The translations under genes were made by a program, and so were the position numbers. Shown here one piece after another: positions 28,429 to 62,648 of a stretch of 64,000 nt of DNA (its first letter is position 1; every line of letters begins with the position of its first letter). Under the pieces are notes generated by a model that worked only from the letters and a program-made list of their open reading frames with translations, had not been told where the DNA came from and did not search any database. Origin of the DNA: Methanobacteriota archaeon (GTDB lineage Archaea; Halobacteriota; Bog-38; Methanoflorentales; Methanoflorentaceae); assembly GCA_963701995.1 (NCBI GenBank), contig OY969693.1:1926105-1990104 (forward strand), in the 5' to 3' direction.

Positions 28429-28542
28429 AGGGCTATTTTTCCCTTCTTTTTTTTTCAAACGCGGCTCGTGGGCATAATTGTTGTTATCTCGTTCGCATTG
28501 ACTTCGTCACACTATTTTATTAGCAATTACAGAGCAATTACG

Positions 28543-32004: not shown

Positions 32005-32008
32005 CTCC

Positions 32009-32014
32009 TTTTTT
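32009..32014 (+). terminator. Oligo-T tract after tRNA-Asp
   Basis: TTTTTT begins 5 nt after the tRNA 3' end. Oligo-T is the usual archaeal termination signal. Confidence 0.5.
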
Positions 32015-32068
32015 GCATCTATTTGACCAGCGGAGGCTAAAATAGAGTTTTCTGAGGCGTGGGGGTGG

Positions 32069-32154
32069 GGAGCCTGTATTAGGCTCCGGTCACTGTGTCA
32101 AATTCGTCAACAATGCGTTCAGATATTGCTAAGTAAGGGAGCCTCAGGGGCTCC
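32069..32154. repeat. Junction repeat copy 1 (hairpin A + GCGTTCAG box + hairpin B)
   Basis: GGAGCCTGTATTAGGCTCCGGTCACTGTGTC ... AATGCGTTCAGATATTGCTAAGT ... GGAGCCTCAGGGGCTCC. Related copies lie at 35320, 37247, 41695 and 47761. Confidence 0.7.
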
Positions 32155-32234
32155 ACTGACGTGGAATTTTGCAAATAGTCGAAAGAAAAAACATAATGTA
32201 AATTAAATCATGAGATTATTCTGATAACAAAAAA

Positions 32235-33017
32235 ATGAAAGAAAATACATTAAATCTTGGTAAAATGCAAGAAAGAGACCTATATCCTACCATATTCCAA
32301 CGGAAGTCCATTAGAAAGTACGATTTAGACCCCCTCGATGAAGATACATTAAAGGATTTCAGAGATCATCTTCAAACTTTAAAGCGGTTGCATAAGGACA
32401 TTAAAATTGAATTTAAGATTTTATCTCCCGATACTGTTATAAGAAGGACGATGAGAAAAGCACCGCACTATATAGCTGTTTTTTCAGAGCCAAAAGAGGG
32501 TTATCTAAGCAATGTAGGGTTCATGCTACAGCAGATGGATCTATTTTTTTCTGCTAATGGATTGGGTAGTTGCTGGCAGGGGATCCCTGCTCTCAAAAAA
32601 GAAGGTTTGGCAAGTTCACATCTGAAATTCATCATTTTAATGCCCTTTGGAAAGCCCCAGGAAACGTTACACCGAACAAAAACGTCCCAATTCAAAAGAA
32701 AATCACTCCAGGAAATAAGTGACATTAAAGGTGCAGATGATTTACTGGAAACAGCTCGTCTTGCTCCTTCTGCACGCAATGCACAGGAGTGGTTTTTTAC
32801 AGGTGATGAACATTTAATTCATGCATATTACCGTAAACCAAGCTTCATCCCGGGACTTTTAATCAAAAAATATCCCCCTATAGATGTGGGAATTAGTCTT
32901 TATCACTTGAAACTGGGTGCAGAACATTTTGGCAAAGAAACTGAAATTATATTTGATAACCCGGAGGATAATAATCTCAATAATTATGAGTATGTTGCCA
33001 GTTTGCGCTTAACATAG
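32235..33017 (+). CDS. Nitroreductase-family protein
   Basis: 260 aa. IFQRKSIRKYD near the N-terminus and ARLAPSARNAQEW later. AT-rich. Confidence 0.75.
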   Translation: MKENTLNLGKMQERDLYPTIFQRKSIRKYDLDPLDEDTLKDFRDHLQTLKRLHKDIKIEFKILSPDTVIRRTMRKAPHYIAVFSEPKEGYLSNVGFMLQQMDLFFSANGLGSCWQGIPALKKEGLASSHLKFIILMPFGKPQETLHRTKTSQFKRKSLQEISDIKGADDLLETARLAPSARNAQEWFFTGDEHLIHAYYRKPSFIPGLLIKKYPPIDVGISLYHLKLGAEHFGKETEIIFDNPEDNNLNNYEYVASLRLT

Positions 33018-33341
33018 TCAAATTCCCTGATTTGTTCTCGAGTGATTTCTACCAATCTTTCGGCTCCGGTTCAATAGTTTCTTTTTCCGTTATGAAGCTT
33101 AAAAAAAGAGTTTGTGCCAGACTCTTCGCCCCTCACTTCCTTACCCTTGTAGTACGCTGCCTTTTTTGCCATCTCCCCAGGCGAGGCGATTGCTCCTAGC
33201 TGCTGCAGCACTCGAAAAAAGAAGCACGCTACTGGCTTTAAATCGAAAAAAGAAATAACGAGCTAGGAGTTAAGGAGAGATAAAACTGAGCGCGCTATAT
33301 CTCTCCCTGATATGCGGACTAACTCAATCGTGTTGCTTGCA

Positions 33342-33674
33342 TTAGAGTTTGACCATGATGTTTTCGTCTTCAACCTTTAGTTGGTAGGACGGTACATCCT
33401 TTATCTTTGGATGTAAAAATACCACTTTCGGACGAGTAACCACCTTGCCAGTAGTGACGTCGAACTGTGCATTGTGCCCCGTACATGTCATAATATTGCC
33501 GTCTAAAACGCCTTGCGAAAGGGCGTTCCCCATGTGGCTGCACTTATTGCTGATGGCATAGTAGTTGCCGTTCACGTTTGCTATCAGAATCTGTGTGCCC
33601 TCAACCTCAACCTCTTTCATGGTGCCGACTGGAACCGCTGACGTTTCACCAACCTTCACATAATCTGCACTCAT
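33342..33674 (-). CDS. Rieske [2Fe-2S] domain protein
   Basis: CSHMGNALS ... CTGHNAQF (the CxH...CxxH Rieske ligands). Start taken at MSADYVKVG. Confidence 0.8.
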   Translation of the reverse strand: MSADYVKVGETSAVPVGTMKEVEVEGTQILIANVNGNYYAISNKCSHMGNALSQGVLDGNIMTCTGHNAQFDVTTGKVVTRPKVVFLHPKIKDVPSYQLKVEDENIMVKL

Positions 33675-33883
33675 AATCTTACCTCTTTCTCTTCTGACAA
33701 ACTCTCGGTACTTACCTCTGGTGCGTTTGCGTAAACATCTACATCTCTCTCCGGTGGACAAGGAGGATGCTCAATACAAACGTTGCAGATGCTGAGCAAA
33801 TATGTTAACCACTTTCGAGTGAAGTAGCAGTGACTGTAAGCCCTTGATTTATATAACGCTACTCTCCATTGATTGAAGCGAGA

Positions 33884-34063
33884 TTAAAAAGGACGCCATA
33901 CTGTTAGAATCAAACCAGTTACAATAATCAAGATTAACACAACGGCTATAATTTGGCGTCCTCTTTGTGACTTATTTTGCAGTTCCTCACCACATTGAGA
34001 GCAATACAGCACACCGTCGCGGTTTTGGAATTGACAATTTTCGCACCACCCTTTCGTCACCAT
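33884..34063 (-). CDS. Small zinc-ribbon protein with C-terminal transmembrane helix (not in ORF track, 59 aa)
   Basis: GGAGG lies 5 nt before the ATG. Translation is MVTKGWCENCQFQNRDGVLYCSQCGEEL..IIAVVLILIIVTGLILTVW. Confidence 0.5.
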   Translation of the reverse strand: MVTKGWCENCQFQNRDGVLYCSQCGEELQNKSQRGRQIIAVVLILIIVTGLILTVWRPF

Positions 34064-34447
34064 ATTCGCCTCCGACTTCCGTTTGAGCAGTTATTGGTTT
34101 TAAATTACATACGTTTATACAAGAGGCGAGAGGTAGCTTAACAATTCCTATCCTGTCACTCTTGCCTTCTTGGGTCAGGTCGTGAACAGAGCCCATTAAG
34201 TGCTTGAAATCGAAAAAAGATCGAGCGCAGATTAGCTTGGACTACTTACGCGTTCGGCTGGTTGAGGATTTCTAGCTTTGGCCAACCCTTCAAAATAAGT
34301 AAAGTCAATAATGCTGTGACGTATTAAGCTACACGCCTAAGTTGCAGCTCGCTGCCATTATTGTTTGACTTATAAGGCTATCTTTAACGATATTTATACT
34401 CGAGATGCACTGTTAGAAACAGGTATCGGAAGCTGAGGAAAAATGAG

Positions 34448-34951
34448 ATGAGTATTCTTGTGAACGTAATAATAAGCATAAATGTTCTGGCAGTAGCATA
34501 CATCATAGCTTCTCTTTACTATCCTATGCTGGCAGGAGGCGCAGCATATAGTCCTACTCCGAGGCAGATTGTAGCTGAGGCTCTTAAACTGGCAGACCTT
34601 AAGAAAGATGAAGTCTTCTACGACCTTGGATGTGGAACAGGAGAAGCCCTTTTAGAAGCCTCAAAGTTATGCGATCATGTGAAGGGAGTTGAGATAGAGC
34701 CTATTCGATGGTTTATAGCCAAGCTCAGAGCAAGAAAAGCCCAAGTCATTCTAGGAAACCTTTTCAAGCAAGACATTTCTGACGCTGATGTTATATTCAT
34801 ATTCCAATACGAAGGAAGGATAAACAACAGAATCGTGATGAAAATAAAGGCTGAAACACGAAGCGAAACAAGGATCATAAGCTATTTGCACCCAATAGAA
34901 AATATGAAGCTTATCAAAAGCCAAAACGAGATTTTCTTTTACAAGACATGA
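34448..34951 (+). CDS. Class I SAM-dependent methyltransferase (small)
   Basis: VFYDLGCGTGEALLEA motif I and VKGVEIEP post-I, with an N-terminal hydrophobic helix. Confidence 0.7.
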   Translation: MSILVNVIISINVLAVAYIIASLYYPMLAGGAAYSPTPRQIVAEALKLADLKKDEVFYDLGCGTGEALLEASKLCDHVKGVEIEPIRWFIAKLRARKAQVILGNLFKQDISDADVIFIFQYEGRINNRIVMKIKAETRSETRIISYLHPIENMKLIKSQNEIFFYKT

Positions 34952-34991
34952 AAGGTTCTGTCAACATGTTTTACAGGGCTACGCCTTTCCA

Positions 34992-35174
34992 TTATTCCAT
35001 ATACACGTCATACACGTGCTCAGGCAGCGGATGCCGATAGTTGCTCCATTCAATGCCTCGCACTCCATGCGTGAGAATATAGGCACAATTGGATTCATTC
35101 CCTCCGACTACATCGCCGTGCTGCTCAGCCAACTTACGGGCGTGTGAGAGAATAAAAGAACTCGGACTCTGCAT
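34992..35174 (-). pseudogene. Integrase C-terminal fragment
   Basis: ..NCAYILTHGVRGIEWSNYRHPLPEHVYDVYME aligns with ..NKNYILTHGVRGVDWRFYKSPRPEPVYDIYIQ of 26373..27341. The upstream sequence is out of frame or degenerate. Confidence 0.75.
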
Positions 35175-35319
35175 GGCCTATGTACAATAAACTGGTTCCA
35201 CTCTGTCGACATCAAAACGTGTTCAGGGACGGAGGAAACCCCAGCCTGCATTCACGACATATCTGCTTCTTTCACGAGATCTTTACCGCCTTGTCGGTTC
35301 CCGTCCCGGTACTCATGTT

Positions 35320-35372
35320 GAAGCCTGCATTAAGCTTCGGTCGCTGTGTCGAATTGATCCTTCAAAGCGTTC
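35320..35372. repeat. Junction repeat copy (variant hairpin A + GCTGTGTCGAAT + CAAAGCGTTCAG) abutting the integrase fragment
   Basis: GAAGCCTGCATTAAGCTTCGGTCGCTGTGTCGAAT..CAAAGCGTTCAG, compared with GGAGCCTGTATTAGGCTCCGGTTGCTGTGTCGAAT..CAAAGCGTTCAG at 37323-37370. Confidence 0.6.
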
Positions 35373-35475
35373 AGTGTTAATAGGTCGGTCCCAGCCTCAA
35401 CAGGAGGACTATGACCTACCTAAAACTTGTTCGCGAAAAAAAGGAGGAAGGCCTGCCCTTTCAGTACATCTTTAT

Positions 35476-35616
35476 TCAGGTCCACTCGTGGCCTTTTTCA
35501 CACCTGTGCTTCCCTTCGTGCTTTGCGTCTTCATGCGAGCAGACAATCTCGCCACCACACTCAGGGCACGTGACAGTGCACTTAATGATTTCATTTTGCT
35601 CGTCATCCTCTGCCAT
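35476..35616 (-). CDS. Small zinc-ribbon protein (46 aa, not in ORF track)
   Basis: GAGGTGG is upstream of the ATG. Translation is MAEDDEQNEIIKCTVTCPECGGEIVCSHEDAKHEGKHRCEKGHEWT. Confidence 0.45.
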   Translation of the reverse strand: MAEDDEQNEIIKCTVTCPECGGEIVCSHEDAKHEGKHRCEKGHEWT

Positions 35617-35683
35617 TGTTCCACCTCTTGTTGACTACTAATTAAAGCGTATGCGGAGTATAAAAGTAGTGTTTTAAATCCAG

Positions 35684-36170
35684 CTACCGTTGGCGGTAAT
35701 CAGCAGGCACCCCCCATCTTTCTGTTACATTATACCGAGGCACTGTTGACTCGAAGTGAACCCAGATGGGAGCATTATCTAACTGAGGATGTGCTGCAAA
35801 AAAAGAACTGTCGCCGTGGCGTAGGGCTTTAAGAACTAAGGGCAATTCATCTTGAAAGATTGTATATCGTAATGGAGCAGATCCAAAAACAAACCCGCCA
35901 CTCACGTGACAATAGACGCGTAACGCCGGCCTTTCATTAGTTTCCTTCCCACTCAGCTAGCACTTCATCTCTCACGAGCCTTGTATACCGACCACATATC
36001 TGTGATTCATTGCAATCTGGGCCAATTGTCAAAAAGAGCTCAGCTGTGATATCGGAGTGGGTTAGCGTATAACGGCGCGGGGAGATCGGATCCGTGGGTC
36101 CAATTCCAGCCACGTATTTGACGTGCAACTTTTCCGGCCGCAATCTATTCTCGCGTCTGTGCGTATCCAT
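35684..36170 (-). pseudogene. Staygreen (SGR)-family protein, frameshifted
   Basis: PRRYTLTHSDITAELFLTIG..RDEVLAEW ends in a stop. The +1 frame continues ..LRVYCHVSGGFVFGSAPLRYTIFQDELPLVLKALRHGD..HPQLDNAPIWVHF. Confidence 0.6.
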
Positions 36171-36389
36171 TGGTTCGCCTTCCCTTCAACCGTCCTTAAA
36201 TTCAATCTCGTAGACGAATTGGAAGCCTATATGCTTATCAAAAAGGGTATTGTCAAACCTTTGACGGCAGCGTGCCGGAACTGCCTCACAAATATTTGCT
36301 GTCAATGCTTTGTGAGCAAAGAAAAATGCCGCTCTCCTGTGAAGCAAGAGAACAGCTATGAAATGTTCCGCTGTTTTAGCTTATGCATT

Positions 36390-37031
36390 CTACTTCTCGC
36401 CTTCATCAGGAGCGGAAGCAGCGGGAACATCAGTTGCCGACTGTGGCTGGTCAAAACCATCTGCCAAATGACTGCTAGAACTGACTTCTGCATCCAGTTG
36501 TTGCAGCGAGATGCCGTTTTTCTCCAGCAGGTGGATCAGCATACGAGTATGGCGCAACAGTTCCGCGTCTTGAGCGGAGAGATGTTGCATAACCAGTTCA
36601 ATATCCTTATAGCTGGTCATAGTCGTATTGAACTGTTCGTCCGCCTGAAGTTCAGACTTTCGTCCTAAGACGTTCTGCCCAACCATAATAATCGGTAGTA
36701 AGGTCAGCTGAAGGAATGTTTGCGAAATCCATACAACGAGTAAGGCGACGATGGGGCTAAGTAAGCCAACGATGGCCATCAATCCAACGACAGCAAGCGC
36801 TGCAAACGCATATGCCATCCACATCGTACCCACCCTTTTAGTAAGCCCAACCGCAACGCGCGTATTGACGCCAGCCGCCTTTTGCTCAGCTTCATGAAGC
36901 AAATTAACATTGCGTGGCTGGTAAGGATGATGTTCGTGATTAAACAACGCGCTGGTATGGCGATGCGGGTGCGCCTGTGTTTGTGGTACAATCTCTGTTT
37001 TGACAGAATCCGACGTGGTCTCTCCTTGCAT
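36390..37031 (-). CDS. Membrane protein, DUF1003-like
   Basis: Two TM helices followed by IIMVGQNVLGRKSELQADEQFN..DIELVMQHL, resembling the DUF1003 pattern. The family call is tentative. Confidence 0.4.
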   Translation of the reverse strand: MQGETTSDSVKTEIVPQTQAHPHRHTSALFNHEHHPYQPRNVNLLHEAEQKAAGVNTRVAVGLTKRVGTMWMAYAFAALAVVGLMAIVGLLSPIVALLVVWISQTFLQLTLLPIIMVGQNVLGRKSELQADEQFNTTMTSYKDIELVMQHLSAQDAELLRHTRMLIHLLEKNGISLQQLDAEVSSSSHLADGFDQPQSATDVPAASAPDEGEK

Positions 37032-37246
37032 ACTAATAATCCTCCGATTGCTAAATCTACCTATGTTTTCGATTATATCTTACACTATAACAGCCTCCGA
37101 CCTTTTTGAATACTGTCACCTGTTGAACTCTCTCTTGTTTTGTTATTTCCCATAATCTACCCTCTTTACGGTCTTCCGGTCATCAAAATAACCTAAACAC
37201 GTAAGAACAAGTTGACTCAGCTTAGAAGCTATAGTTTTAGTTGCGA

Positions 37247-37375
37247 CAAAGCGTTCAGATGTTACTATATCAGTCGGAGCCTCAATAGGGCTCCAACTCA
37301 TTGCTTGTGGACAATGGAGTCGTAGCCTGTATTAGGCTCCGGTTGCTGTGTCGAATGCATAGTCAAAGCGTTCAG
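37247..37375. repeat. Junction repeat copy 2 (box + hairpin B, then hairpin A + box)
   Basis: CAAAGCGTTCAGATGTT..GGAGCCTCAATAGGGCTCC..TAGCCTGTATTAGGCTCCGGTTGCTGTGTCGAAT..CAAAGCGTTCAGAAGTC. Confidence 0.7.
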
Positions 37376-37495
37376 AAGTCACACAAATTAGGCGAGAAGT
37401 CACCAGAGCGATGCAATGTCTTTCGGCTTATGTCTATGAAGTAAGATAAACTATGGAAAAAGAAATTTTTATACTCTGTCACCTAATTTCTTACT

Positions 37496-38557
37496 GTGAT
37501 AGATGCAGAACCTCTAATTACCGTCATTATCCCAACGTTTCGCAGGCCGAAGTTGTTACGAAGAGCGATCTTAAGTGTACTAAACCAGACGTTTTCCTCA
37601 TTTCAGGTATGCGTATACGATGACGCCTCAAATGATAATACGCAAAAAGTTGTGACTGAACTAGCGGAAACTGATTCAAGAATCAAGTATTACTGTCACG
37701 AACAAAACATAGGCGCTGTGGCAAATTTCAATTATGGACTAAAAGAGGTGAATACCCTTTTTTTTTCATTTCTCAGTGATGATGACCTACTTTTGCCACA
37801 TTTTTTTGAAGTGGCCATGCAGTCTCTCAGCTCTAATCCCGATGTCATGTTTTATGCAGGGTTGACCATCCAAGTTGAAGATAACAAGATCATCGGTATA
37901 TCGAAAAACGGTGGTCGCTTTGGATATATTTCCCCTCCTGATAGTCTACTAGACATATTGGATCATCAATTAATGTGGAATTCGATTGTTTTCAGATCAA
38001 AGGTTGTGGATTGCGTTGGCTTATTAGACATTGACGTGGGTGGACCAGCAGACATAGACTTTGAGTTCCGCGTTGCAGCGCATCATCCAGTTATTATCTC
38101 AAATGAACTAAGTGCAATTTACATGCTGCACACACAATCTTTCTATGCCCGTTCGTCTGATATTAGACTATTTTTGCCTGGGTTCAAACTTATTGTTAAT
38201 AGAATGATGTCAGATGAATCTCTCTCATTAGATACCAGGATTCAAATCAAGAATAGACTTAATGCGTGGCTAGCTAACATGCTTATCGCGCTAGCAGAGC
38301 GAGCAAGCCTGAAGGGAGAGTTTGACAATGTCTCTGCTATTGCGGAAATACTGAAGCGTTTCTGCAATAAAAAAGCGACGGCCCTTCTTCTTGTTGGCCG
38401 ATTAAAACTGAAAGAATCAAGTGAGCCAGCCTTTTTTTTGGTCATTTGGATAGAACGGTGGTTACGGTTCATTTTTCCACTTAACATAATAAACAAGATA
38501 AAACTCAAACAGCTTCAAAGGAAATATGGAGAATATTTGCGCTACCTTGATACGTGA
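37496..38557 (+). CDS. Family-2 glycosyltransferase
   Basis: ITVIIPTFRRPKLLRRAILSVLNQTF..VCVYDDASNDNT. GTG start. Confidence 0.8.
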   Translation: MIDAEPLITVIIPTFRRPKLLRRAILSVLNQTFSSFQVCVYDDASNDNTQKVVTELAETDSRIKYYCHEQNIGAVANFNYGLKEVNTLFFSFLSDDDLLLPHFFEVAMQSLSSNPDVMFYAGLTIQVEDNKIIGISKNGGRFGYISPPDSLLDILDHQLMWNSIVFRSKVVDCVGLLDIDVGGPADIDFEFRVAAHHPVIISNELSAIYMLHTQSFYARSSDIRLFLPGFKLIVNRMMSDESLSLDTRIQIKNRLNAWLANMLIALAERASLKGEFDNVSAIAEILKRFCNKKATALLLVGRLKLKESSEPAFFLVIWIERWLRFIFPLNIINKIKLKQLQRKYGEYLRYLDT

Positions 38558-38576
38558 CTAGATCTGCTTCACGAAT

Positions 38577-39665
38577 ATGAAAGAAGATGTACCCTTGGCC
38601 CACGCGGGAATGGCGGCGCAATTTGACCTCCAAAAACAATATTATGCAGAAGGAAAAGTCTTCATCCTCCAAATCGAATCAACCCTCCAATGTCCCCAAT
38701 TATGTAACTATTGCTACGCTGGAAGCACCCCCGAGAGCCCTCAAGGGTTATCCTCCGCAACTATTCGGCAGCTATTAGACGCTGCGGCCGCTTTGAAGGT
38801 GCAGGTGATAGATTGGTTGGGAGGAGATCCCCTTATGCGGAGGGACTGGGAATCCCTCTGTACCTACGCCACCAGCTTAGGTCTAATTAACAACATCTGG
38901 ACATCGGGCATCCCGCTCGCCAAACCGGGGGTCGCGGCAAGCGCGGTAAAAGCGACCCAAGGGGGTTTTATCTCGACGCATTTAGATTCGCTCGATCCGG
39001 AACTTTACGGGATTTTGCATGGCGAGGAAAAACGTCGCGGAGATTCACGTAATATCGGATTAATCCTGAAAGGCGTTAACAACTGCTTGGCAGCGGGGAA
39101 GGACCCGGGGGGGATGGTCAATTGCATCACCTATACGACCCCATTGGCCGCTGGAGACGCGCGGGCGACAATCGCCTATTTTCAGGAAAAGTTCGGCATC
39201 AAGACTTGCGTCACATTATTCAACCCCGCGATCCAGCGCATGGGAAATAGTTCTTGGGAACCGACCCACGCCCAGATAAAGGACATCTTTAACTTCCGTG
39301 ACCGAGTAAATTACCCGAACGACCCCTCATGCGGGCCTATGGATGTTTCGAAATTCTATTGTGGAACGCTCGTATGTGTCACTGCTGGGGGATGGGTGGT
39401 CCCTTGTTCCGTGATCCGGACAGAGGAGTTTGGAAACGTGAATAAAGAAGAATTTTTAACCATTCTGGAGCGCGGACGGCGGAGACTCTTATTTTTAGAT
39501 TTCCGGGATCTTGCCAAACTCCCTGGCAATTGCAGCAGTTGCTGCAATAATTCCTTTTGTTTCGGGTGTCGGAGTAGCGCCTATTATTATGCTGGCGACT
39601 TAATGGCCGCAGACCCCAAGTGTTTTCAATATAACCAGTGTTCCACGAAAAAAGAAGGGATCTGA
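38577..39665 (+). CDS. Radical SAM protein with C-terminal Cys-rich (SPASM-like) extension
   Basis: CPQLCNYCYAG (CxxxCxxC). The C-terminus has CGTLVCVTAGGWVVPCS ... CSSCCNNSFCFGCRS. Confidence 0.8.
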   Translation: MKEDVPLAHAGMAAQFDLQKQYYAEGKVFILQIESTLQCPQLCNYCYAGSTPESPQGLSSATIRQLLDAAAALKVQVIDWLGGDPLMRRDWESLCTYATSLGLINNIWTSGIPLAKPGVAASAVKATQGGFISTHLDSLDPELYGILHGEEKRRGDSRNIGLILKGVNNCLAAGKDPGGMVNCITYTTPLAAGDARATIAYFQEKFGIKTCVTLFNPAIQRMGNSSWEPTHAQIKDIFNFRDRVNYPNDPSCGPMDVSKFYCGTLVCVTAGGWVVPCSVIRTEEFGNVNKEEFLTILERGRRRLLFLDFRDLAKLPGNCSSCCNNSFCFGCRSSAYYYAGDLMAADPKCFQYNQCSTKKEGI

Positions 39666-39670
39666 TTCAC

Positions 39671-40492
39671 ATGGATGTTAAAGAAAGCATGAATAGACAA
39701 TATGACTTTAGCGTTAACGACGTGAGTGCCGTTTACGCTGGACCAGGCGGAAAACTGTGGGAACTTTTAATGGGTGAAGAGATCCACGTCGGTGGGGCCG
39801 AACAGACAGATTATTTAGCAAAGAAAGTCGGCATTGATAGGAGGGGCAAGGATCTCATCCTCTTAGACATATGTTCTGCCCTCGGCGGTCCTGCCCGGCA
39901 CCTGGTCGAAAAATATGGCATCAGCGTCATCGGAGTGGATATCACGCCGGAAATGATCGCAGAAGCCCAAAAGCGCACCATAGGTAAACCCTTCAAGGAC
40001 AAGATCGAATATCGCTTTGGTTCCGCCCTAGACTTGCCCGCTCATGCGAAGTCTTTTGATGTCGTGTGGGGTCAAGACTCCTGGTGCTATGTCAGGGACA
40101 AGAAACGGCTCATCGACGAAACGGCACGAGTACTCAAGTCCGGTGGGACTTTGGCGTTTACGGATTGGATTTGGGGTTCGGTACAAGCCCCCCTAAATGA
40201 GGCGGATTTCCTAATGGCGTTTATGGTATTTCCCGATTTGCAGACCTTGGATGGATATGCAAATTTGATTCGGGCAGCAGGATTGAAATTAAAAGAACAA
40301 GAAGACCTGAGTGTTGATTTCGCGCAGAATATGGGTCAATACTTGGTTACCCTAAAGAAGAACAAGGGGAACATCATTCCAGGCTTTGGCAATGATCTGT
40401 ATAATGAAGCGGAAAAGGGCATAATGGCTTGGAATAAGGCCGCCCACGAAAGAAAAGTTGGACGAGGACTCTGGATTGCAACTAAAATGTGA
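39671..40492 (+). CDS. Class I SAM-dependent methyltransferase
   Basis: LILLDICSALGGPARHL and VIGVDITPEMI. Start taken at MDVKESMNRQ. Confidence 0.75.
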   Translation: MDVKESMNRQYDFSVNDVSAVYAGPGGKLWELLMGEEIHVGGAEQTDYLAKKVGIDRRGKDLILLDICSALGGPARHLVEKYGISVIGVDITPEMIAEAQKRTIGKPFKDKIEYRFGSALDLPAHAKSFDVVWGQDSWCYVRDKKRLIDETARVLKSGGTLAFTDWIWGSVQAPLNEADFLMAFMVFPDLQTLDGYANLIRAAGLKLKEQEDLSVDFAQNMGQYLVTLKKNKGNIIPGFGNDLYNEAEKGIMAWNKAAHERKVGRGLWIATKM

Positions 40493-41324
40493 ATCTGTCG
40501 AACCTAAGTCGCACGGAACAGAACATGGAGCAATAAGGAACGTCGTTATCATATTTTCTAAGGTTCCGGTGGCCGGGACCGTAAAAACTCGCCTTATCCA
40601 AGACTCCAGTTTAGACGCAGAGCATGCTGCCTTACTCGCCGAGGCAATGTTGAAGGATACAATAGTGCTTTCCGCCGAAAGTAACGCGAGCGAAATCGTG
40701 ATTGGATTTACCCCTGCAGACGAACGGGAATCCATGGAGCGGATTGTAAAGGAAGTCGTGAAGGAGAGACATGTGGAAAGACCTATTACATTTCTCACCC
40801 AAAGCGGCACGAATTTTGATGAGCGATTTGGATCCGTGGTCTCCGCAGCTTTTGCCATGGGCTCGGAAAATTTAGTAATTTTGGGCGACGACCTCCCTTA
40901 TTTACCCCCGGATATTATAAACCGCGCATTCTCATTTCTCATGGAAGATAGGAGCAATGATTCCGTAGTTCTCGGTCCCGCTGGCGAGGGAGGCATTTAT
41001 CTCGTGGGAATTACACGGCATTTCGATCCGGAATATTTTTCAAAAAACCAGCTGTTTTCCGGGGGCGTGGAAATCTCTCAATTCATAAAACTTTGTAAAA
41101 ATGAAGGAAGGGTTCTAAAATTACTCCCCGCATTCACTGATGTTGATATCGAAGGAGATCTGGTCTCCCTCCTGCTTTATATTGATGCTATGAAAATCGC
41201 AAAGAAGTTCGAAGGGTTTTATTTTCCTAGTTACACCGCAGATGCAATAACCCAGCTCAGACTGATCGTCTTGGAGCATAGAGGAGAAACTAGACATCGA
41301 AGGATTGGCATAATGCGAGCGTGA
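40458..41324 (+). CDS. DUF2064 / TIGR04282-type nucleotidyl- or glycosyl-transferase-like protein
   Basis: VVIIFSKVPVAGTVKTRL is the signature N-terminus I recall for DUF2064. The exact start is uncertain; the track ATG overlaps the upstream gene by 35 nt. Confidence 0.6.
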   Translation: MDEDSGLQLKCESVEPKSHGTEHGAIRNVVIIFSKVPVAGTVKTRLIQDSSLDAEHAALLAEAMLKDTIVLSAESNASEIVIGFTPADERESMERIVKEVVKERHVERPITFLTQSGTNFDERFGSVVSAAFAMGSENLVILGDDLPYLPPDIINRAFSFLMEDRSNDSVVLGPAGEGGIYLVGITRHFDPEYFSKNQLFSGGVEISQFIKLCKNEGRVLKLLPAFTDVDIEGDLVSLLLYIDAMKIAKKFEGFYFPSYTADAITQLRLIVLEHRGETRHRRIGIMRA

Positions 41325-41506
41325 GCGGATTGTTAATTTCCGTTATCACCATAACTCTAAATGAGGCCACAAATCTTTCCATAACAATACAGAAAGCCCG
41401 AGAAGCGTCCCAGACTCCAAAAGCGTGGGGGGGTATCCCGCCAGGCGGAGCGGAGCAAAAGAAGGCCGAGTACTACAAGGGCAAGGAAGTGAAAGGGAGA
41501 AAGTAG
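41321..41506 (+). pseudogene. Truncated N-terminus of a second GT2-type glycosyltransferase
   Basis: LISVITITLNEATNL is a GT2 N-terminal beta-strand/NE motif. The ORF then degenerates into low-complexity sequence and stops, just before junction repeat copy 3. Confidence 0.45.
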
Positions 41507-47905: not shown

Positions 47906-48376
47906 TTGTTTTTCATGCATGGTACTAAAAGCAAAAACTTAAGTCAGCGCCCTCCGCAACCTTTTCCTATGCCGTTCGTTCATCAACCTGAGTATATACC
48001 TGGAATTCCAGCAGCCACCATTACAACCCCCACTAATAATACGCGGGTGGAAAACTCAGAATTTGTTAAAGGCACAGCCCATAACATTGAGGGAGGACAA
48101 TATTGGCTATGGCTTGCATTATATGGTTACAACGCGAACCGCCATTACCCACAAGATGGTCCCGTTGTTGTCTCCTCAGACGGTCAATGGGAGATGACTG
48201 CTTCTTTTGGGAGCAGCGGAAGGTATGATATTACTGCGCTCGCTGCAGACAAAGACGCCAACGAGATTCTCTTACTATACCAAGCGGCCAGTGAGTCGAG
48301 TGGTGATTATCCGGGGTTGCCTGCCCTTCCTTCAGGATGCATAACGCTGGCTTCAGTCACCGTCTCTAGAACGTAG
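47906..48376 (+). CDS. Hypothetical protein
   Basis: 156-aa ORF with protein-like composition. No motif recognised. Confidence 0.4.
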   Translation: MFFMHGTKSKNLSQRPPQPFPMPFVHQPEYIPGIPAATITTPTNNTRVENSEFVKGTAHNIEGGQYWLWLALYGYNANRHYPQDGPVVVSSDGQWEMTASFGSSGRYDITALAADKDANEILLLYQAASESSGDYPGLPALPSGCITLASVTVSRT

Positions 48377-48587: not shown

Positions 48588-49049
48588 ATGAAGATACCAA
48601 AGTTAGCAGTTACGGACAAAGACAATATGATCGCGGAGCGTGTCGGTAAAACCGACCACAAAACGCTAGCAGTCTGGGCTTGTGATTGTGCTGAACGTGC
48701 ACTGCCCTATTTTGAAAATAAATACCCGCAGGATAACCGTCCGAGGCTAGCTATTGAAGCAGGTCGAGCGTGGGTGAAAACTGGCGTGTTTAAGATGGAT
48801 ATACGCAAGATTGCACTTGCAGCTCATGCGGCAGCTCGTGAAGTAAAAGATGAAAATGCAGCTCGCGCAGCTGCCCGTGCAGCAGGTCAAGCGTTGTCTA
48901 CTGCACATGTTCCCACCCACGCTGTCGCTGCTGCCATTTACGCAGCAACCGCTGTCCGCGACGCCGTTGAACCTGCTAACGCCGAGATAGCCACAGACAA
49001 AGAGCGTGAGTGGCAATTGCAGCATTTACTTAACTTGTCGGAAAGCTAA
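48588..49049 (+). CDS. Helical Ala-rich protein resembling 'putative immunity protein' (Imm5-like) families
   Basis: TLAVWACDCAERALPYFE..DNRPRLAIEAGRAWVKTG..AAHAAAREV..AARAAGQALSTAHV.THA. The family call is from memory only. Confidence 0.4.
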   Translation: MKIPKLAVTDKDNMIAERVGKTDHKTLAVWACDCAERALPYFENKYPQDNRPRLAIEAGRAWVKTGVFKMDIRKIALAAHAAAREVKDENAARAAARAAGQALSTAHVPTHAVAAAIYAATAVRDAVEPANAEIATDKEREWQLQHLLNLSES

Positions 49050-55537: not shown

Positions 55538-57412
55538 GTGATATTTATGGTCTTCGGGTTCGGCACGCCAAACGTAGAAACGATGAGAGAGAAGCGGGAC
55601 GTCAAAGGGCTCATCAAGGCATTAGGGTATAAAAAGGAAAGTGATGTTCGCATAAACGCTGCGAGCGTCCTTGGCGAGATCTGCGATCCCCGGGCCGTTA
55701 GGCCGTTAATAAAGGCGCTTAACGACGCGGACAGTGATGTTCGCAGTAACGCTGCAGAAGCCCTCGGCAGGATCGGTGAACCGGCCGTTAAGCCGTTAAT
55801 ACGGGCGCTCGGAGACACGGGCGAGCATGTTCGCAGAGCTGCTGCAGAAGCCTTAGTCAATATCGGTGAATCTGGCGTTGAGCCGTCAATAAGGGCGCGA
55901 AACGACTCGCGTTATCATGTGCGCAGCGGCGCTGCGGAAGCCCTCGGCAGGATCGGTGATAGCAGAGCAGTGGAGCCGTTAATAAGGGCGCTCAACGACG
56001 CTGACAGTGACGTTCGAAGTAGCGCCGCGGAAGCCCTCGGCAGGATCGGTGAACCGGCCGTTGCGCCGTCGATACGGGCGCTCGGAGACACGAGCGAGCA
56101 TGTTCGCAGGGCTGCAGCGGATGCCCTCGGCAGGATCGGTGAACCGGCCGTTAAGCCGTTAATAAGGGTGCTCAACGACTCGAATTGGGGTGTGCGCGAG
56201 AGCGCTGCCGCTGCGGAAGCCCTCGGCAGGATCGGTGATAGCAGAGCAGTGGAGCCGTTAATAAGGGTGCTCAACGACTCAGATTCGCATGTGCGCGAGA
56301 GCGCTGCCGCTGCGGAAGCCCTCGGCAGGATCGGTGATAGCAGAGCCGTTGAGCCCTTAGAAAGGGCGCTTAACGACGCGGATTCGCGTGTGCGCGAAAA
56401 CGTTGCGGAAGCCCTCGATGCGCTGAGGTGGACCCCGGGAAGGGATGAGGCAGCGGCCGCCTACTGGATATCGAAAGGACAATGGGATAAGTGCGATACA
56501 ATCGGTGAACCGGCTGTTCCGCCGTTGATACGGGCGCTTAACGACGCGGACAGTGATGTTCGCAGTAACGCTGCGGAAGCCCTCGGCAGGATCGGCGAAC
56601 CGGCCGTTAGGCCGTTAATAAAGGCGCTTAACGACGCGGACAGTGATGTTCGCAGTAACGCTGCGGAAGCCCTCGGCAGGATCGGCGAACCGGCCGTTAG
56701 GCCGTTAATAAAGGCGCTTAACGACGCGGACAGTGATGTTCGCAGTAACGCTGCGGAAGCCCTCGGCAGGATCGGCGAACCGGCCGTTAGGCCGTTAATA
56801 AAGGCGCTTAACGACGCGGACAGTGATGTTCGCAGTAACGCTGCGGAAGCCCTCGGCAGGATCGGTGATAGCAGAGCCGTTGAGCCCTTAGAAAGGGCGC
56901 TTAACGACGCGGATTCGCGTGTGCGCGAAAACGTTGCGGAAGCCCTCGATGCGCTGAGGTGGACCCCGGGAAGGGATGAGGCAGCGGCCGCCTACTGGAT
57001 ATCGAAAGGACAATGGGATAAGTGCGATACAATCGGTGAACCGGCTGTTCCGCCGTTGATACGGGCGCTTAACGACGCGGATTCGCGTGTGCGCAAGAGC
57101 GCTGCGGAAGCCCTTGGCAAGATTGGTGGTTTTAGGGCGGTGCGGACGTTGATAAGAGCGCTCAACGACTCTGATTGGGATGTTCGCTCGGGTGCTGCGG
57201 AAGCCCTCGGCACGATCGGTGAGCCGGCGGTGGAGCCGTTAATAAAGGCGCTCAATGACTCGGATATTACGCGTGTTCGCGTGAACGCTGCGGAAGCCCT
57301 CGGCAGGATCGGTGATAGCAGGGCTGTTGAGCCCTTAGAAAGGGCGCTTAACGATGCTGACAGTGGTGTGCGCAAGAGCGCTGCGACAGCCCTTCGTAGG
57401 TTCGGACTATAG
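55538..57412 (+). CDS. Large HEAT-repeat (PBS-lyase HEAT-like) protein, about 20 repeats
   Basis: The 30-31-aa unit EPAV.PLI.ALND.DSDVRS.AAEALGRIG is iterated throughout. An alternative ATG is at 55547. Confidence 0.85.
   Translation: MIFMVFGFGTPNVETMREKRDVKGLIKALGYKKESDVRINAASVLGEICDPRAVRPLIKALNDADSDVRSNAAEALGRIGEPAVKPLIRALGDTGEHVRRAAAEALVNIGESGVEPSIRARNDSRYHVRSGAAEALGRIGDSRAVEPLIRALNDADSDVRSSAAEALGRIGEPAVAPSIRALGDTSEHVRRAAADALGRIGEPAVKPLIRVLNDSNWGVRESAAAAEALGRIGDSRAVEPLIRVLNDSDSHVRESAAAAEALGRIGDSRAVEPLERALNDADSRVRENVAEALDALRWTPGRDEAAAAYWISKGQWDKCDTIGEPAVPPLIRALNDADSDVRSNAAEALGRIGEPAVRPLIKALNDADSDVRSNAAEALGRIGEPAVRPLIKALNDADSDVRSNAAEALGRIGEPAVRPLIKALNDADSDVRSNAAEALGRIGDSRAVEPLERALNDADSRVRENVAEALDALRWTPGRDEAAAAYWISKGQWDKCDTIGEPAVPPLIRALNDADSRVRKSAAEALGKIGGFRAVRTLIRALNDSDWDVRSGAAEALGTIGEPAVEPLIKALNDSDITRVRVNAAEALGRIGDSRAVEPLERALNDADSGVRKSAATALRRFGL
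56311..57081 (+). repeat. Nested perfect DNA repeats inside the HEAT gene
   Basis: 56311-56550 is identical to 56842-57081 (240 bp). Between them are 90-bp units starting at 56541, 56631, 56721 and 56811, identical to each other. Confidence 0.85.
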
Positions 57413-59347: not shown

Positions 59348-60180
59348 CTTGCGCTCACCTCCTTTTTACCAAATGAGTATAGGGCTCGTAAGGCCCCACG
59401 TAACCGCTGAGAACAGCAAAAGCTCGAGCGCACATATAGGGTCAGCGAAGCCTTTGTGGCCCCGTAGAACGCTTCCCCGCTCTCCGAAATTTTCTGCTCG
59501 TAGTTTGAGGGCTCTTGAATCAGGTTATCGGCCTCTCCGCTCTTATCCGAAAAGATGCACGCTCCCGCTCTCAAGTGCCGTGATGATGAGCGAGGCGAGC
59601 TGCTGTTTTGAGACTTGTCGTCAAAGTCGATATTGCTCGGTCGGCAATGCCTTTTGCACGATCTCCACGACCGGCCGACCAATCCCGGTCGCATCACAGT
59701 ACCGGTTTGCAGATATGAGTTTTGTCCAGCATAGGCTTCAAGCTGCCGGTCGAGTTTGACCAGCTTCTTCACCATCCTCGTTCCATTCTTTCACCTTTCT
59801 GCGTTAGTGCATTGCTCGACTTGAACCTGTCAAATAGTCCCACGTTGATCCCCCAGTACAAGCACGCGGGCATATTTATAATTCTTCTTTAAATTGGGAA
59901 CACAGGTAGCTCACTTGCTATGCTGGGGAATCCTTTAGCTACCTTGCTAGGCAAGAGGGAGCCCTTGCGCTTGTTTTCACTCAACCGAAACCCCAAAAAA
60001 AGATACATCAAAAATCGGGATTATCAAAATACCTTAACGTGCTCGTGGCGGCTTTAGTCATTTCTCAAGCGATTTGTGAACAAAAACGCCCTCACGATTA
60101 CGCTCCGTTATATGCTTTCGTCTAGCGCATCGGCAGCAGAATCGTGAGGGTCGAGTAGAAACGACATCGGTGCTGCGTCT

Positions 60181-60723
60181 GTTGTGGAGAAGCAACATGA
60201 CAAGGATTATTACGATAAAGAAGTATTTTTGGGAAGGGTTGCAGAGCAACATCCACTAAAATAAGGATTGAAATCGAGGATTCAAAACATAAGGGTGGTT
60301 CTACAGTTATGACCGAAGGAGATTGGTTTAAAGTGAGAATGTGGGAGTTAAAGAAGCTGCTGCGTGGTTCCGATTACAATACCATATACGATGAGTTCGG
60401 GGGTGAAGTTATCGCTGACCTAACTGAATGGCTCAAGATGAAAGGAGCAGCGAAGTTCCAGAATAACCTCAATCCAGTGGTTGCAATCACAGAGAAAGAC
60501 GATGTGGTATTCCTCCAGGACTTCGAAGAAGCTCCTACCGACCGGAGCAAAGCGATTATTCACCTTGACGGGCTGTATGAGTTTATAAAAGAAAAGGTGC
60601 ACCAAGATGTCTAGATCCATCGCTGTAAGGCTGCAGAGCAACATCCACTAAAACAAGGATCGAAACCGCACTTAGATGCAATAAGCGCTGGAAAGATCAG
60701 TTGCAGAGCAACATCCACTAAAA
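60181..60723 (+). CRISPR. Orphan, partly degenerate mini-CRISPR array (37-nt repeat ending ATTGAAAC) with one 355-bp ORF-bearing 'spacer'
   Basis: R1 is 60238-60274 (GTTGCAGAGCAACATCCACTAAAATAAGGATTGAAAT) and R2 is 60630-60666 (GCTGCAGAGCAACATCCACTAAAACAAGGATCGAAAC). R3 is 60700-60723 (truncated) and a degenerate copy lies at 60181-60213. A 33-nt spacer occupies 60667-60699. Confidence 0.7.
60309..60614 (+). CDS. Hypothetical small acidic protein encoded between CRISPR repeats R1 and R2
   Basis: 101-codon ORF with GGGTGG 10 nt upstream of the ATG, on the same strand as the repeat orientation. No recognisable motif. Confidence 0.55.
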   Translation: MTEGDWFKVRMWELKKLLRGSDYNTIYDEFGGEVIADLTEWLKMKGAAKFQNNLNPVVAITEKDDVVFLQDFEEAPTDRSKAIIHLDGLYEFIKEKVHQDV

Positions 60724-61468
60724 GGCGTGTGTGTCTTTTCAGCTGCGCTTGCGTGTTCCATTCGCCCTCTCCGTAGCTCCTGACTCGTTATTTCTTTTTT
60801 CGATTCCCTTTGATTTATGGCCCCCTTCAGCAGCAACGCTGCAACCTTCTCATTTTACAGCAAAAAAGTGCCTTCGAGGGCATTTCAAACTATCAAGAAA
60901 AAAAGGAAAAAAAGGTAATAAGCACGCTGAAAACAAGCCGCGCGATAAGCAGCCACGCTAAGGCCCGGATCCGGGCTTGGTGGCACGTGTAGGCTATAGA
61001 CCAGCTCACCAAGTGTCCACGTGCGAACCGTAGAGGCTTTTTCATTCAAGAATTTTATCAGTCTCCTCTCGCTCCTTTGCTTTCTCTCTCGAGTCCTCGG
61101 CTGCTGTTTGGGTGTCTAACTTACGCCTCAAATCATCCATAGCCGCCCGCACCCGTAGAATCTCGGCTCGATACTGAGTATAAAGCTCTGGAAAATCCTC
61201 TAAATAGAGGTCAATCTCGTCACAGCGTCATACAACACGTCGCTAATCATCTTTCTGGACCTCCCAAAGGTTCAAAGGTTCGATTCGCATAATGCAGCAT
61301 GCGGCATCAATAAACTCGTATCAGTCCTACAGTAGTAGCAGCAACAGGGCGATAAACAAAACTGCTATGAGCGAACCCCTTTTCACGAGATGTTCAGATG
61401 CGTCTGCAATGCGCTTTAAGTGGTCTTTTTCTCCCGGTCGCACGTCCTAATCAACCGCGCCTCTTTTT

Positions 61469-61624
61469 TTAAATCCCCTGCTCCTCGGCAAATTCAACGC
61501 TCAGAAAAAACGTCTTTGAAATCGCAGTCTTGCGCAAGCTGATTGAATAACGCAATTGCCCCCGTATGTCTGCGAGCGTTATCTTGGTATCAGCAATCGT
61601 GGCTATCATTAGTTTTTCAGACAT
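61469..61624 (-). CDS. Small ORF with UPF0175-like (antitoxin-type) C-terminus
   Basis: 51 aa: MSEKLMIATIADTKITLADIRGQLRYSISLRKTAISKTFFLSVEFAEEQGI. It resembles the ..S.GKAAE.....EF...L.E.GI ending of UPF0175. No clear SD or partner gene. Confidence 0.3.
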   Translation of the reverse strand: MSEKLMIATIADTKITLADIRGQLRYSISLRKTAISKTFFLSVEFAEEQGI

Positions 61625-62312
61625 AGGTAACGAATGTAAGAGAGTGAATTAATTTACCCGTTAATCATAGACCGTCAAAGGTTCATTAAATTCGCTAGCT
61701 GTAAGCTTCGCGGCGATGCCGAGCGCGTCCCTTTTTGCGAATATTATCGCCGTCCGCGCCTCGTGGCATATTGACGGTTCTACGCTACCTACGAGAACGG
61801 CCTCGACGTGCGGCAACGACTATAATGAATGGCGCTATTTATTCGTTCTCGATGCCACTTCCGAAATATGCGAGCTTTTTCTATCCCTGTTCTTAAATGA
61901 CACGCCTCGTACGGCCTATTATCAACATATATTGGTAATGTCATCTTATCAGGACCGAAAACGACGGTGAGAAAATCTTAACTGGCCAGCGGAATAACTC
62001 ACTTAACAACGATGATGGATTGTCGACGGTGCGAAAAGTTTAACGGTTGCAAACTGCGCGGTAAGGGGGATCGCGTCCCATATTGCGATCAGTACCGACG
62101 TCCGCACCGTATCATGTACACGACATAGCAAGAAGCCGTCATAGAGGTTGCCGATGACTAGCCTGGAACCGCGCTTTTATCCAAGCCAAGACGTTAAGTG
62201 CATAAATTATGACCGCGCTTCTATGTGGTTTATTGGTCTCGCGCTTATCATTATAGGCTTTTTTTATCTTTTTTATACTAAAGCAACACTTGTTTGAGGG
62301 AGGATAAACACA

Positions 62313-62648
62313 ATGACCAATAAAGAGAAGTTTATCTTGAACGAGCTTAAGCGGCTCCAGGGCGAGATCGACGTGCTTAAGGAAGTCTACGCGCATTATT
62401 TGGATGAAGGACTGAAGCGCGAGGCACGGGTCGAGGATGCAATGAATAAAATGCTTACTATAACGAAGGAGCGGGTAACAGAGGCCGATAGCGAGCAATC
62501 AGAGAAAAATATCACGCACTCGAAGAGGCCGGTGGAGAAGATTGCGGAGCTTGAGGAGAAGATTGCGGAGCTTGAGGAGAAGATTGCGGAGCTTGAGGAG
62601 AAGATTGCGGAGCTTGAGGAGAAGATTGCGGAGCTTGAGGAGACATGA
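62313..62648 (+). CDS. Coiled-coil protein with C-terminal (KIAELEE)x5
   Basis: GGGAGG lies upstream of the ATG, and the protein has a heptad-like composition. It is preferred over the antisense ORF 62139..62498. Confidence 0.6.
   Translation: MTNKEKFILNELKRLQGEIDVLKEVYAHYLDEGLKREARVEDAMNKMLTITKERVTEADSEQSEKNITHSKRPVEKIAELEEKIAELEEKIAELEEKIAELEEKIAELEET
62535..62639 (+). repeat. Five perfect tandem copies of a 21-bp unit
   Basis: GAGAAGATTGCGGAGCTTGAG x5 without a mismatch. Confidence 0.9.

Follow-up and report, generated by a model that had tools for sequence, protein, structure and literature searches.

A conserved protein-coding gene in a spacer position of an orphan CRISPR array in uncultured Halobacteriota

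CRISPR arrays are viewed as stores of short non-coding guides. We describe here a small array from a Methanobacteriota archaeon in which a complete open reading frame (ORF) of 101 codons, referred to as ORF101, lies between two of the repeats. The DNA analysed is a stretch of 64,000 nucleotides (nt) of contig OY969693.1 (assembly GCA_963701995.1, positions 1,926,105 to 1,990,104 of the forward strand), which we call the window and by whose positions all window coordinates are given. A sequence-only reading of the window had drawn attention to this arrangement, and the analysis reported here followed it up computationally. The order at the locus is leader, first repeat (R1), a 355-bp cassette containing the gene, second repeat (R2), a 33-nt spacer (S) and a truncated third repeat (R3), with the following features.

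59794-60165, + strand: distal leader-like region, in which TTATAT occurs at about 60108 and an inverted repeat of 16 nt has its arms at 60089-60104 and 60135-60150.
60166-60237, + strand: leader-proximal element (…GCAACATGACAAGGATTATTACGmTAAAGrAGTATTTTT…), which always abuts the first repeat of the array.
60238-60274, + strand: R1, a full-length CRISPR repeat that departs from the canonical sequence by two substitutions, one in the loop (C25T) and one in the last base (C37T).
60275-60308, + strand: 5' untranslated region (UTR) of 34 nt, with a Shine-Dalgarno-like GGGTGG at 60293-60298.
60309-60614, + strand: ORF101, 101 codons in the spacer position, encoding a 101-aa protein of an uncharacterised family.
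60615-60629, + strand: tail of 15 nt from the stop codon to R2, a spacing that is mostly exactly 15 nt in loci with a recognisable downstream repeat.
60630-60666, + strand: R2, a full-length CRISPR repeat with two substitutions, T2C and T32C.
60667-60699, + strand: S, the 33-nt spacer between R2 and R3.
60700-60723, + strand: R3, the terminal truncated repeat, perfect over its first 24 nt and divergent afterwards.
60724-60838, + strand: trailer with T-runs, TCTTTTC at about 60735 and TTTCTTTTTT at about 60790.

R1 and R2 lie where the sequence-only reading had placed them and differ from one another by the four T/C transitions that it had counted. Each is two mismatches away from GTTGCAGAGCAACATCCACTAAAACAAGGATTGAAAC, and none of 100 shuffles gave a match to that sequence as good as theirs. 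Both score above the gathering threshold of 37 bits for the Rfam family RF01320 (CRISPR-DR7), R1 with 40.1 bits and R2 with 45.6 bits. The truncated third copy was likewise upheld, with 24 nt of the repeat matched perfectly, as were the position of ORF101 within the 355-bp gap on the same strand as the repeats and the GGGTGG motif 10 nt ahead of its ATG. The gap between R1 and R2 lies outside the regular interspacing of about 30-40 nt, while the 33 nt between R2 and R3 fall within it. Two further stretches had been proposed as degenerate repeats, and neither was detected by Rfam at E <= 10. The stretch at 60003-60030 resembles the repeat at chance level (shuffle p ~0.26), and the one at 60181-60213, which is spanned by the leader-proximal element, is marginal (shuffle p ~0.01), its repeat score of 24 being lower than those of several chance matches within unrelated genes of the window.

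A Pfam scan of the window ORFs of at least 130 aa returned no Cas family, in keeping with the earlier statement that the 64 kb contain no cas gene, and PADLOC, which was run solely on four ORFs near the locus, gave no credible match. Since no cas gene was found within 3-10 kb of any of the related gene-bearing loci described below either, the array is an orphan. The remainder of the window encodes tetrapyrrole biosynthesis enzymes, ArgRS, aRF1, HypE, an ABC transporter, HEAT-repeat proteins, ferritin and TFIIE-alpha, a housekeeping content indicating that the window is ordinary archaeal chromosome. The locus is syntenic in relatives with the ferritin, HEAT-repeat and TFIIE-alpha neighbours. 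Its flanks are poor in ORFs between 58.8 and 62.3 kb, and no viral or plasmid hallmark genes were found in them with Pfam and PHROG. The broken-ORF appearance that had been remarked upon there is due in part to a stretch of about 960 bp (60838-61797) that holds no ORF of note and is missing from the closest relatives, L026 and L027.

Contig look-ups and a single metagenome scan yielded 67 loci with the gene, about 47 of which are distinct. In nearly all of the distinct loci, a repeat on the same strand ends 33-41 nt before the ATG, and the downstream repeat or its remnant, where recognisable, starts 14-17 nt after the stop codon. The gene has full-length repeats on both sides in about ten lineages, and other lineages have a truncated or degenerate R2. 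Similarity to the window at the DNA level is limited in many loci to about 60166-60719, that is, to the leader-proximal element and R1-gene-R2-S-R3, with outer flanks that cannot be aligned; the leader-proximal element forms the left limit of homology in most loci. An A/T-rich TTATTA lies about 30 nt before R1, and GGGTGG or GGGTGGT is kept ahead of the gene in most loci. The distal leader-like region can be aligned at 78-89% with close relatives (L026/27, L001 and L031) and with the sequence upstream of the first repeat of locus L023, but not with more distant loci (mean column identity 0.24), and the trailer is 87-89% homologous to L001, L031 and L026/27. The gene-in-array arrangement thus recurs, and the description of the locus as an orphan mini-array with a gene in a spacer position is confirmed and is stronger than a single locus could have shown.

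This module occurs in more than one chromosomal setting. TFIIE-alpha lies 2-3.6 kb downstream in one group of loci (group A), as it does in the window; a second group (group B) has a gene for a conserved protein of about 245 aa upstream; and further settings exist. In L023, the distal leader and a repeat (4012-4048) are followed by a 3.5-kb insert and then by a second leader-proximal element of about 100 bp with its repeat (7620-7656), directly before the gene. The insert contains the conserved 245-aa gene and a fragment of a gene for a secreted repeat protein. L023 may show how group B arose, and its duplicated unit points to the array repeat as a hot spot of recombination. At the other end of the module, S is recognisable in a dozen diverged lineages (L026, L028/30/32, L034, L039, L041, L052, L056, L060, L066 and L067). 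The spacer had been called an ordinary one, and this is correct for its length but not for its history, since S is ancient and common to several lineages. Several clades have, in place of R2-S-R3, a single truncated repeat with the same AAAGGCGTGTGT trailer behind it, a collapse that is the expected outcome of recombination between R2 and R3.

We next consider whether the embedded gene is under selection, for which 17 lineage representatives were used to measure divergence. ORF101 has a ratio of nonsynonymous to synonymous change (pN/pS) of 0.20, indicating that the gene is real and functional, and identities of 0.93, 0.95 and 0.79 at codon positions 1, 2 and 3, respectively. The p-distance is 0.26-0.32 at four-fold degenerate sites, and that of the leader-proximal element, 0.25-0.30, is approximately the neutral rate. 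The 5' UTR (0.18-0.29) is conserved across lineages. For R1 the p-distance is 0.13-0.21, consistent with moderate constraint or, alternatively, with a repeat that is kept canonical by repeat turnover. R2, at 0.38-0.45, diverges at or above the neutral rate, and this downstream repeat is not being preserved. In the most divergent orthologs (L009, L068, L069 and L064), the gene is intact, with 81-87% protein identity, the leader-proximal element has been kept, and both repeats have decayed almost beyond recognition. Truncated or pseudogenised copies of ORF101 also exist (L075, L077 and L079).

The hairpin of the DR7 repeat (positions 14-17 with 28-31) is paired in 97% of the cells compared, and six of eight stem substitutions keep the pairing through G-U. 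Two changes are disruptive, and there are no compensatory pairs in a stem that is nearly invariant, a pattern compatible with constraint at the RNA level. The five bases at the 5' end of R1 are replaced in the L001, L031 and L033 clades. We also considered R1 as a TATA-bearing promoter and set this aside, as its A-rich loop is the most variable part of the repeat across lineages.

The product of ORF101 is an 11.8-kDa protein with an isoelectric point (pI) of 4.7. Its earlier characterisation as small, acidic and motif-less agrees with searches of Pfam, PHROGs, PADLOC and NCBIfam, in which it had no family match even with a broadened profile, and with a sequence search of the PDB, which gave chance-level matches only. 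AlphaFold produced a confident alpha/beta model (pLDDT 84, pTM 0.76), for which Foldseek found nothing better than E = 0.4-0.8 in the PDB and BFVD. With respect to the anti-CRISPR (Acr) and toxin families that had been suggested as possible relatives, no Acr family or fold was matched, nor was a neighbour with a helix-turn-helix (HTH) domain of the Aca type seen in Pfam, NCBIfam and PHROG, no dedicated Acr library having been searched. An exact look-up found no record of the window's own protein in the assemblies collection. Homologs of ORF101 form about 50 clusters at 70-94% identity on hundreds of contigs. All are annotated as 'hypothetical protein' and come from metagenome-assembled genomes (MAGs) labelled 'Halobacteriota' or 'Euryarchaeota archaeon' and from environmental metagenomes, and 45 residues are nearly invariant across the family. 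One protein, P0050 (116 aa, on a 666-nt ENA contig), corresponds to ORF101 over the C-terminal 41 residues of the latter (90% identity) and has an N-terminal region of unrelated sequence, a chimera that suggests recombination within the gene in some genomes.

Two relatives of the window show that the array has grown. L041 reads leader, repeat, 37-nt spacer, repeat, 35-nt spacer, repeat, gene cassette, repeat, S and truncated repeat; its three upstream repeats are perfect relative to the consensus, and the one downstream of the gene agrees with it at 36 of 37 positions. In L029 there is a single extra spacer, of 35 nt, and both of its upstream repeats carry the derived variant GAGAACCATCC, with a diverged downstream repeat. 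The leader-proximal element stays beside the newest repeat in both loci, as a CRISPR leader would. The added units lie between the leader and the repeat next to the gene, and their entry duplicated that repeat, which is the signature of canonical leader-proximal acquisition. Thus, in at least the L029 and L041 lineages, Cas1-Cas2 machinery recognised the leader and repeat after the gene had arrived. This polarised acquisition is seen in these relatives and not in the window itself. We found no target for the spacers: S, the newer spacers and the 24-nt stretch between 60181-60213 and R1 (a would-be pseudo-spacer) had no target in the window or in about 85 loci compared with it, S and the pseudo-spacer having no match there of at least 11 nt, and the first 24 nt of the three newer spacers gave no match in IMG/VR, in exact-match scans of limited sensitivity.

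The repeat itself leads beyond this clade. Its 18-nt core was found in few species-representative genomes. Candidatus Methanoperedenaceae archaeon GB37 has arrays, of 58 and 26 copies, whose repeat is the exact 37-nt consensus, and a version with one variant position is present in 17 copies in a Thermoplasmata MAG. Genes for a RAMP protein and for proteins like Cas1, Cas2 and Cas4 immediately precede a GB37 array, so the repeat of the orphan array does occur next to cas genes elsewhere. The leaders of GB37 and of the window are unrelated. When used as a probe, the GB37 Cas1 retrieved a very large family (4950 matches), of which the closest members (80-85% identity) lie in composite loci with Cas6b, RAMP proteins, Cas1/2/4, Cas8b (TM1802), Cas7, Cas5 and Cas3, and the same repeat 3' half is found beside these loci. 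Judging from these cas loci, the repeat family belongs to type I-B / type III systems, with Cas6b as the probable processing enzyme. Cleavage by Cas6b in such systems leaves an 8-nt 5' handle, which would here be AUUGAAAC.

The repeat was also seen in single copies or in pairs. In Methanoperedens sp. BLZ2, a solitary repeat with an altered 5' end (ATTCGAGAGC…; L018, 7624-7660) ends 5 nt ahead of the ATG of a membrane-protein ORF. L019 (7513-7549) has a mini-array of two repeats, and a lone copy in GB37 (L015, 5480-5516) lies far from the GB37 arrays. The placement of repeat copies directly ahead of genes may thus be a wider feature of these organisms.

An exhaustive profile search for ORF101 among 1.8 billion representatives yielded only 12 proteins. 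Six distant homologs, at 29-42% identity, have in common the core motif …ITENDD..FL.DFxExPFDR…GLY.F. The three that could be placed lie on contigs of tightly packed, co-directional and almost unannotated small ORFs; one of these contigs has 33 such genes in 22 kb, including that of a DUF6011 protein matching phage protein families. A direct-repeat search and a permissive Rfam scan of these contigs revealed no direct repeats around the homolog and no CRISPR repeat. The sequence-only reading had regarded homologs without flanking repeats as a sign of chance insertion into a dead array, and the distant homologs are indeed without them. Because these homologs sit in contigs resembling mobile elements, the gene probably came from such an element, and the family would be native to viruses or plasmids, with one member captured into the array. 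IMG/VR contained no relative of the family and no copy of the repeat, and tblastn found no relative of ORF101 among GenBank phages and PLSDB plasmids, no match to the protein P0058 among phages and none to P0055 among plasmids.

The explanation that we favour, and to which we give an even chance, is that a chromosomal orphan array took up a mobile-element gene in its oldest spacer position and expresses it from the array leader. The gene would have come from a virus or plasmid and entered the array in the ancestor of an uncultured Halobacteriota clade, either by recombination at a repeat or by aberrantly long integration by Cas1-Cas2. Integration of viral genomes into arrays through solitary-repeat recombination is proposed in a passage of PMC8616872 that cites Faure et al. 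2019. The whole module would have been inherited since then, with occasional rearrangement. The leader-proximal element would supply the promoter, so that the gene would be transcribed as part of the array transcript, possibly with some promoter contribution from the distal leader-like region, and translation of ORF101 would rely on the Shine-Dalgarno sequence of the gene itself. A cognate Cas6b, if present, would cut 8 nt before the 3' end of R1 and give the mRNA a crRNA-like 5' end (crRNA, CRISPR RNA), and the T-runs of the trailer after R3 may act as a terminator and end the transcript. Processing at R2 would be dispensable, and the repeats would be mostly an inherited array scaffold and not a dedicated regulatory device. 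That processing would be a by-product and not a requirement is suggested by the lineages that keep the gene without repeats and by the dispensability of R2. As for the protein, the most plausible class of activity is an accessory function of a mobile element, such as anti-defence or exclusion, that the host has retained.

Several observations weigh against this explanation or limit it. R1 is more conserved than neutral sites, part of which a pure scaffold view leaves unexplained. The nearest Cas1 relatives come from other organisms, so that they link no cas locus to hosts of ORF101. A chromosome-level MAG record of 2.3 Mb with the module (L023) contains a single instance of the exact 18-nt repeat core, indicating that an array with that exact core is absent from the record. 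The mobile-element nature of the distant-homolog contigs is read from gene organisation, with IMG/VR, the GenBank phages and PLSDB holding no relative. The two capture routes cannot be told apart, since both predict precise junctions flush with the repeats, and we infer the promoter, co-transcription and processing, as we do Cas6b cleavage and the role of the protein.

Among other explanations, expression of the gene might be coupled to CRISPR activity, with a Cas6b cut in R1 (and in R2, if it survives) maturing or stabilising the mRNA, or with repeat-bound Cas proteins controlling its translation, so that the output would report or respond to CRISPR activity. The divergence of R1, at about half to two-thirds of the neutral rate, would fit such coupling, as would the persistence of the hairpin, the fixed strand and spacing of the repeat, its highly conserved 3' handle ATTGAAAC and the continued recognition of the array by adaptation machinery in L029 and L041. 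However, the decay of R2, the collapse of R2-S-R3 in several clades, the replaced 5' bases of R1 in three clades, the lack of compensatory changes in the hairpin and the lack of cas genes near any locus are all difficult to reconcile with it, and the gene is still intact (81-85% identity) in L009, L068 and L069, whose R1 can no longer be recognised. We therefore regard coupling of this kind as unlikely. The sequence-only reading had further envisaged an mRNA bracketed by two Cas6-type cleavage sites. Since R2 decays and divergent orthologs have lost both repeats, this bracketing is not maintained, and obligatory maturation by two Cas6 cuts is not supported. An addiction module of the CreTA or CrePA kind has less in its favour. 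In this case, the degenerate repeat-like stretch, the 24-nt pseudo-spacer and R1 would form a crRNA-like antitoxin that guides Cascade to repress a toxin, ORF101, and a repeat-like stretch, a short spacer and R1 do lie directly upstream of the gene, much as the 103-aa phage-derived toxin gene of CrePA lies beside psiR-psiS-psiR creA (10.1101/2024.01.05.574328). The stretch at 60181-60213 is only marginally repeat-like, though, and has the handle ATTATTAC, not ATTGAAAC; the pseudo-spacer has no target; no cas operon is in or beside the locus; and R1 ends only 34 nt before the ATG, leaving no room for a promoter and target downstream of it. Ordinary spacers, moreover, sit between the leader-proximal element and the gene in L029 and L041. 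The absent target and absent cas context largely refute this explanation, which we consider very improbable. Taken together, the missing cas operon, the targetless pseudo-spacer, the decaying R2 and the repeat-less orthologs that keep the gene speak against the earlier suggestion of a gene whose expression is coupled to CRISPR processing in the manner of CreTA.

Mobile elements figure in two further explanations. ORF101 could be the surviving anti-defence (Acr-like) or superinfection-exclusion gene of a virus or plasmid with a solitary repeat that integrated and was then mostly deleted, the gene being expressed from the leader and perhaps accounting for the orphan, eroding state of the array. 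A small acidic protein of no known family or fold, distant homologs in clusters resembling mobile elements, an orphan array whose repeats erode in many lineages and the second repeat-flanked insertion, of 3.5 kb, at the same site in L023 are consistent with this, and passages of PMC8616872 and PMC10651486 propose solitary-repeat integration and place phage repeat units alongside acr genes. Inheritance of a selected module across many lineages and at more than one chromosomal site would be unusual for a selfish anti-defence gene, however, spacer acquisition continued after the capture, and the Acr and Aca searches described above found no candidate; we judge this origin to be rather doubtful. 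It is highly unlikely that the locus is instead a virus-borne mini-array on an integrated provirus or plasmid, one that uses host Cas proteins against competing elements and in which ORF101 is an ordinary viral gene. Its R2-S-truncated R3 layout is like that of mini-arrays of archaeal viruses (PMC6858448; PMC8616872), its flanks are ORF-poor and about 960 bp beside it are missing from the closest relatives, but hallmark genes are lacking, the synteny is with housekeeping genes, IMG/VR has neither repeat nor protein, and S has been conserved over a long divergence without an identifiable target and is not quickly renewed. Of the earlier proposal of a virus- or plasmid-derived mini-array, then, the mini-array part fails and the mobile origin of the gene is supported by the distant homologs. 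Least credible is a dead array with a chance insertion in which the ORF is non-functional or spurious. The array is an orphan and partly eroded, and some copies of the gene are truncated or pseudogenised. For the gene, this is refuted by the selection analysis, to which the nearly invariant residues, the confident predicted fold, the conserved ribosome-binding site, the presence on hundreds of contigs and the spacer gains in relatives may be added. A decaying array with an insertion was nevertheless the closest of the three interpretations offered at the outset; it is incomplete in that the gene is under selection, S is ancient and spacers were gained later.

The captured gene in its orphan array can be set beside several known systems. 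It resembles other orphan CRISPR arrays in its genuine DR7-family repeats, its leader, its terminal degenerate repeat, the lack of cas genes within 64 kb and the combination of erosion and spacer gain in relatives, and differs from them in the 355-bp cassette with a conserved, selected gene that is co-inherited with the array across the clade. CrePA and CreTA (10.1101/2024.01.05.574328, PMC8501985, PMC9458426) are the nearest functional analogue, with a gene of about 100 aa and apparent mobile origin joined to CRISPR repeats. CreTA, however, lies within cas operons and has a pseudo-spacer that in part matches the promoter of the toxin gene, beside a protospacer-adjacent motif (PAM), with the toxin gene outside the repeat pair, whereas here the gene lies between two true repeats. 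When these CreTA-type features were looked for, there was no cas operon in the 64 kb and no pseudo-spacer match to a promoter beside a PAM; of a possible CreA-type repeat pair, R1 is a true repeat and the other member, 24 nt away, is marginal. Virus-borne mini-arrays, solitary repeat units and Racr (PMC6858448, PMC10651486, PMC8616872) share with the locus the one or two spacers and a full and a truncated repeat like those of complete systems, and solitary-repeat recombination is proposed, in part of PMC8616872, as a route for foreign DNA into arrays. The locus is unlike them in being chromosomal and partly syntenic, without viral genes, with an ancient spacer and with a protein gene, not a guide, as its notable content. 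Of the features expected of such mini-arrays, a viral genome was not indicated by hallmark genes or by IMG/VR, and exact-match scans found no target in a competing virus.

Regulatory mini-arrays and repeat-like RNA elements (10.1101/2023.03.03.530964; CreR, 10.1101/2023.03.10.532045) are also short repeat-like arrays outside a main array, and they are common in archaeal loci including type I-B. Those elements lie in or near cas loci, have spacers of 15-60 bp and target cas or toxin promoters, whereas the present array is far from cas genes and has a coding 'spacer' of 355 bp. Insertion sequences and other insertions likewise place foreign DNA inside arrays. Here, in contrast, there is no transposase, inverted repeat or target-site duplication, the junctions are exactly at the repeat ends, and one small gene has long been under selection. 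Within our incomplete coverage of the published literature, no description came to light of a spacer position taken up by a conserved protein-coding gene. An orphan array with an embedded, selected coding cassette is thus apparently undescribed; the arrangement is old, is found widely in one clade and is consistent with an array that stayed active.

Other parts of the window deserve mention in their own right. An ORF at 62313-62648 (+ strand) contains, at 62534-62643, five or six perfect tandem copies of the 21-nt unit GGAGAAGATTGCGGAGCTTGA, which give the product, a coiled-coil protein of 111 aa, a C-terminal (EKIAELE)n; this gene adjoins the module in group-A relatives too, at 74-88% identity. 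The product of 48588-49049 (153 aa) strongly matches Imm-5-like putative immunity proteins (PF21805, E = 2.9e-39), and its gene adjoins that of a small secreted-looking protein (47906-48376), homologs of which neighbour the ORF101 module in L062, L064 and L069. A 624-aa protein with HEAT / PBS-lyase-type repeats is encoded at 55538-57412, in the most GC-rich stretch of the window (61%), by a gene with large near-identical internal duplications, e.g. the identical antisense ORFs 56357-56501 and 56888-57032. Five or six clustered paralogues at 2144-6984 have a common C-terminal domain ending …LWTDDPxYAxxLxxxFExxW…, and two of them bear TrmB-type HTH domains. Finally, a low-GC region at about 26000-41500 (41-45% GC versus 52-59% around it) surrounds tRNA-Asp (31932-32005) and may be an integrated island; it holds a 443-aa ORF without a Pfam match (26010-27341), an RDD-family protein, DUF4386, methyltransferases, a GT2 glycosyltransferase and a radical-SAM protein.

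What is unusual about the array is that a selected gene lies exactly between two repeats, that gene and array are co-inherited throughout a clade and that spacer acquisition upstream of the gene has been tolerated. These features indicate that the architecture of a CRISPR array can host and probably express coding DNA. One may go further and suppose that CRISPR arrays serve as platforms for gene capture and expression, in which a mobile-element cassette, placed in a spacer position by the adaptation integrase or by recombination between repeats, is driven by the leader, is delimited by Cas6 sites and has long been retained by selection for a product that acts on CRISPR immunity or in virus-host conflict. 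This is a speculative extension that we think improbable. If it were true, ORF101 would be the first conserved array-embedded gene, and the repeat ahead of it would function in 5' processing or control. Loci of this type will be missed or split by CRISPR-finding software of the kind that caps the length of spacers. The locus raises the questions of how DNA longer than a spacer enters an array, whether leader promoters and Cas6 sites are reused for mRNA and why orphan arrays persist, be it for useful or for selfish content. ORF101 itself represents a structurally unassigned family that links chromosomal arrays with mobile elements, and it is a reasonable candidate for a novel anti-defence or exclusion factor in the little-studied archaea related to methanogens.

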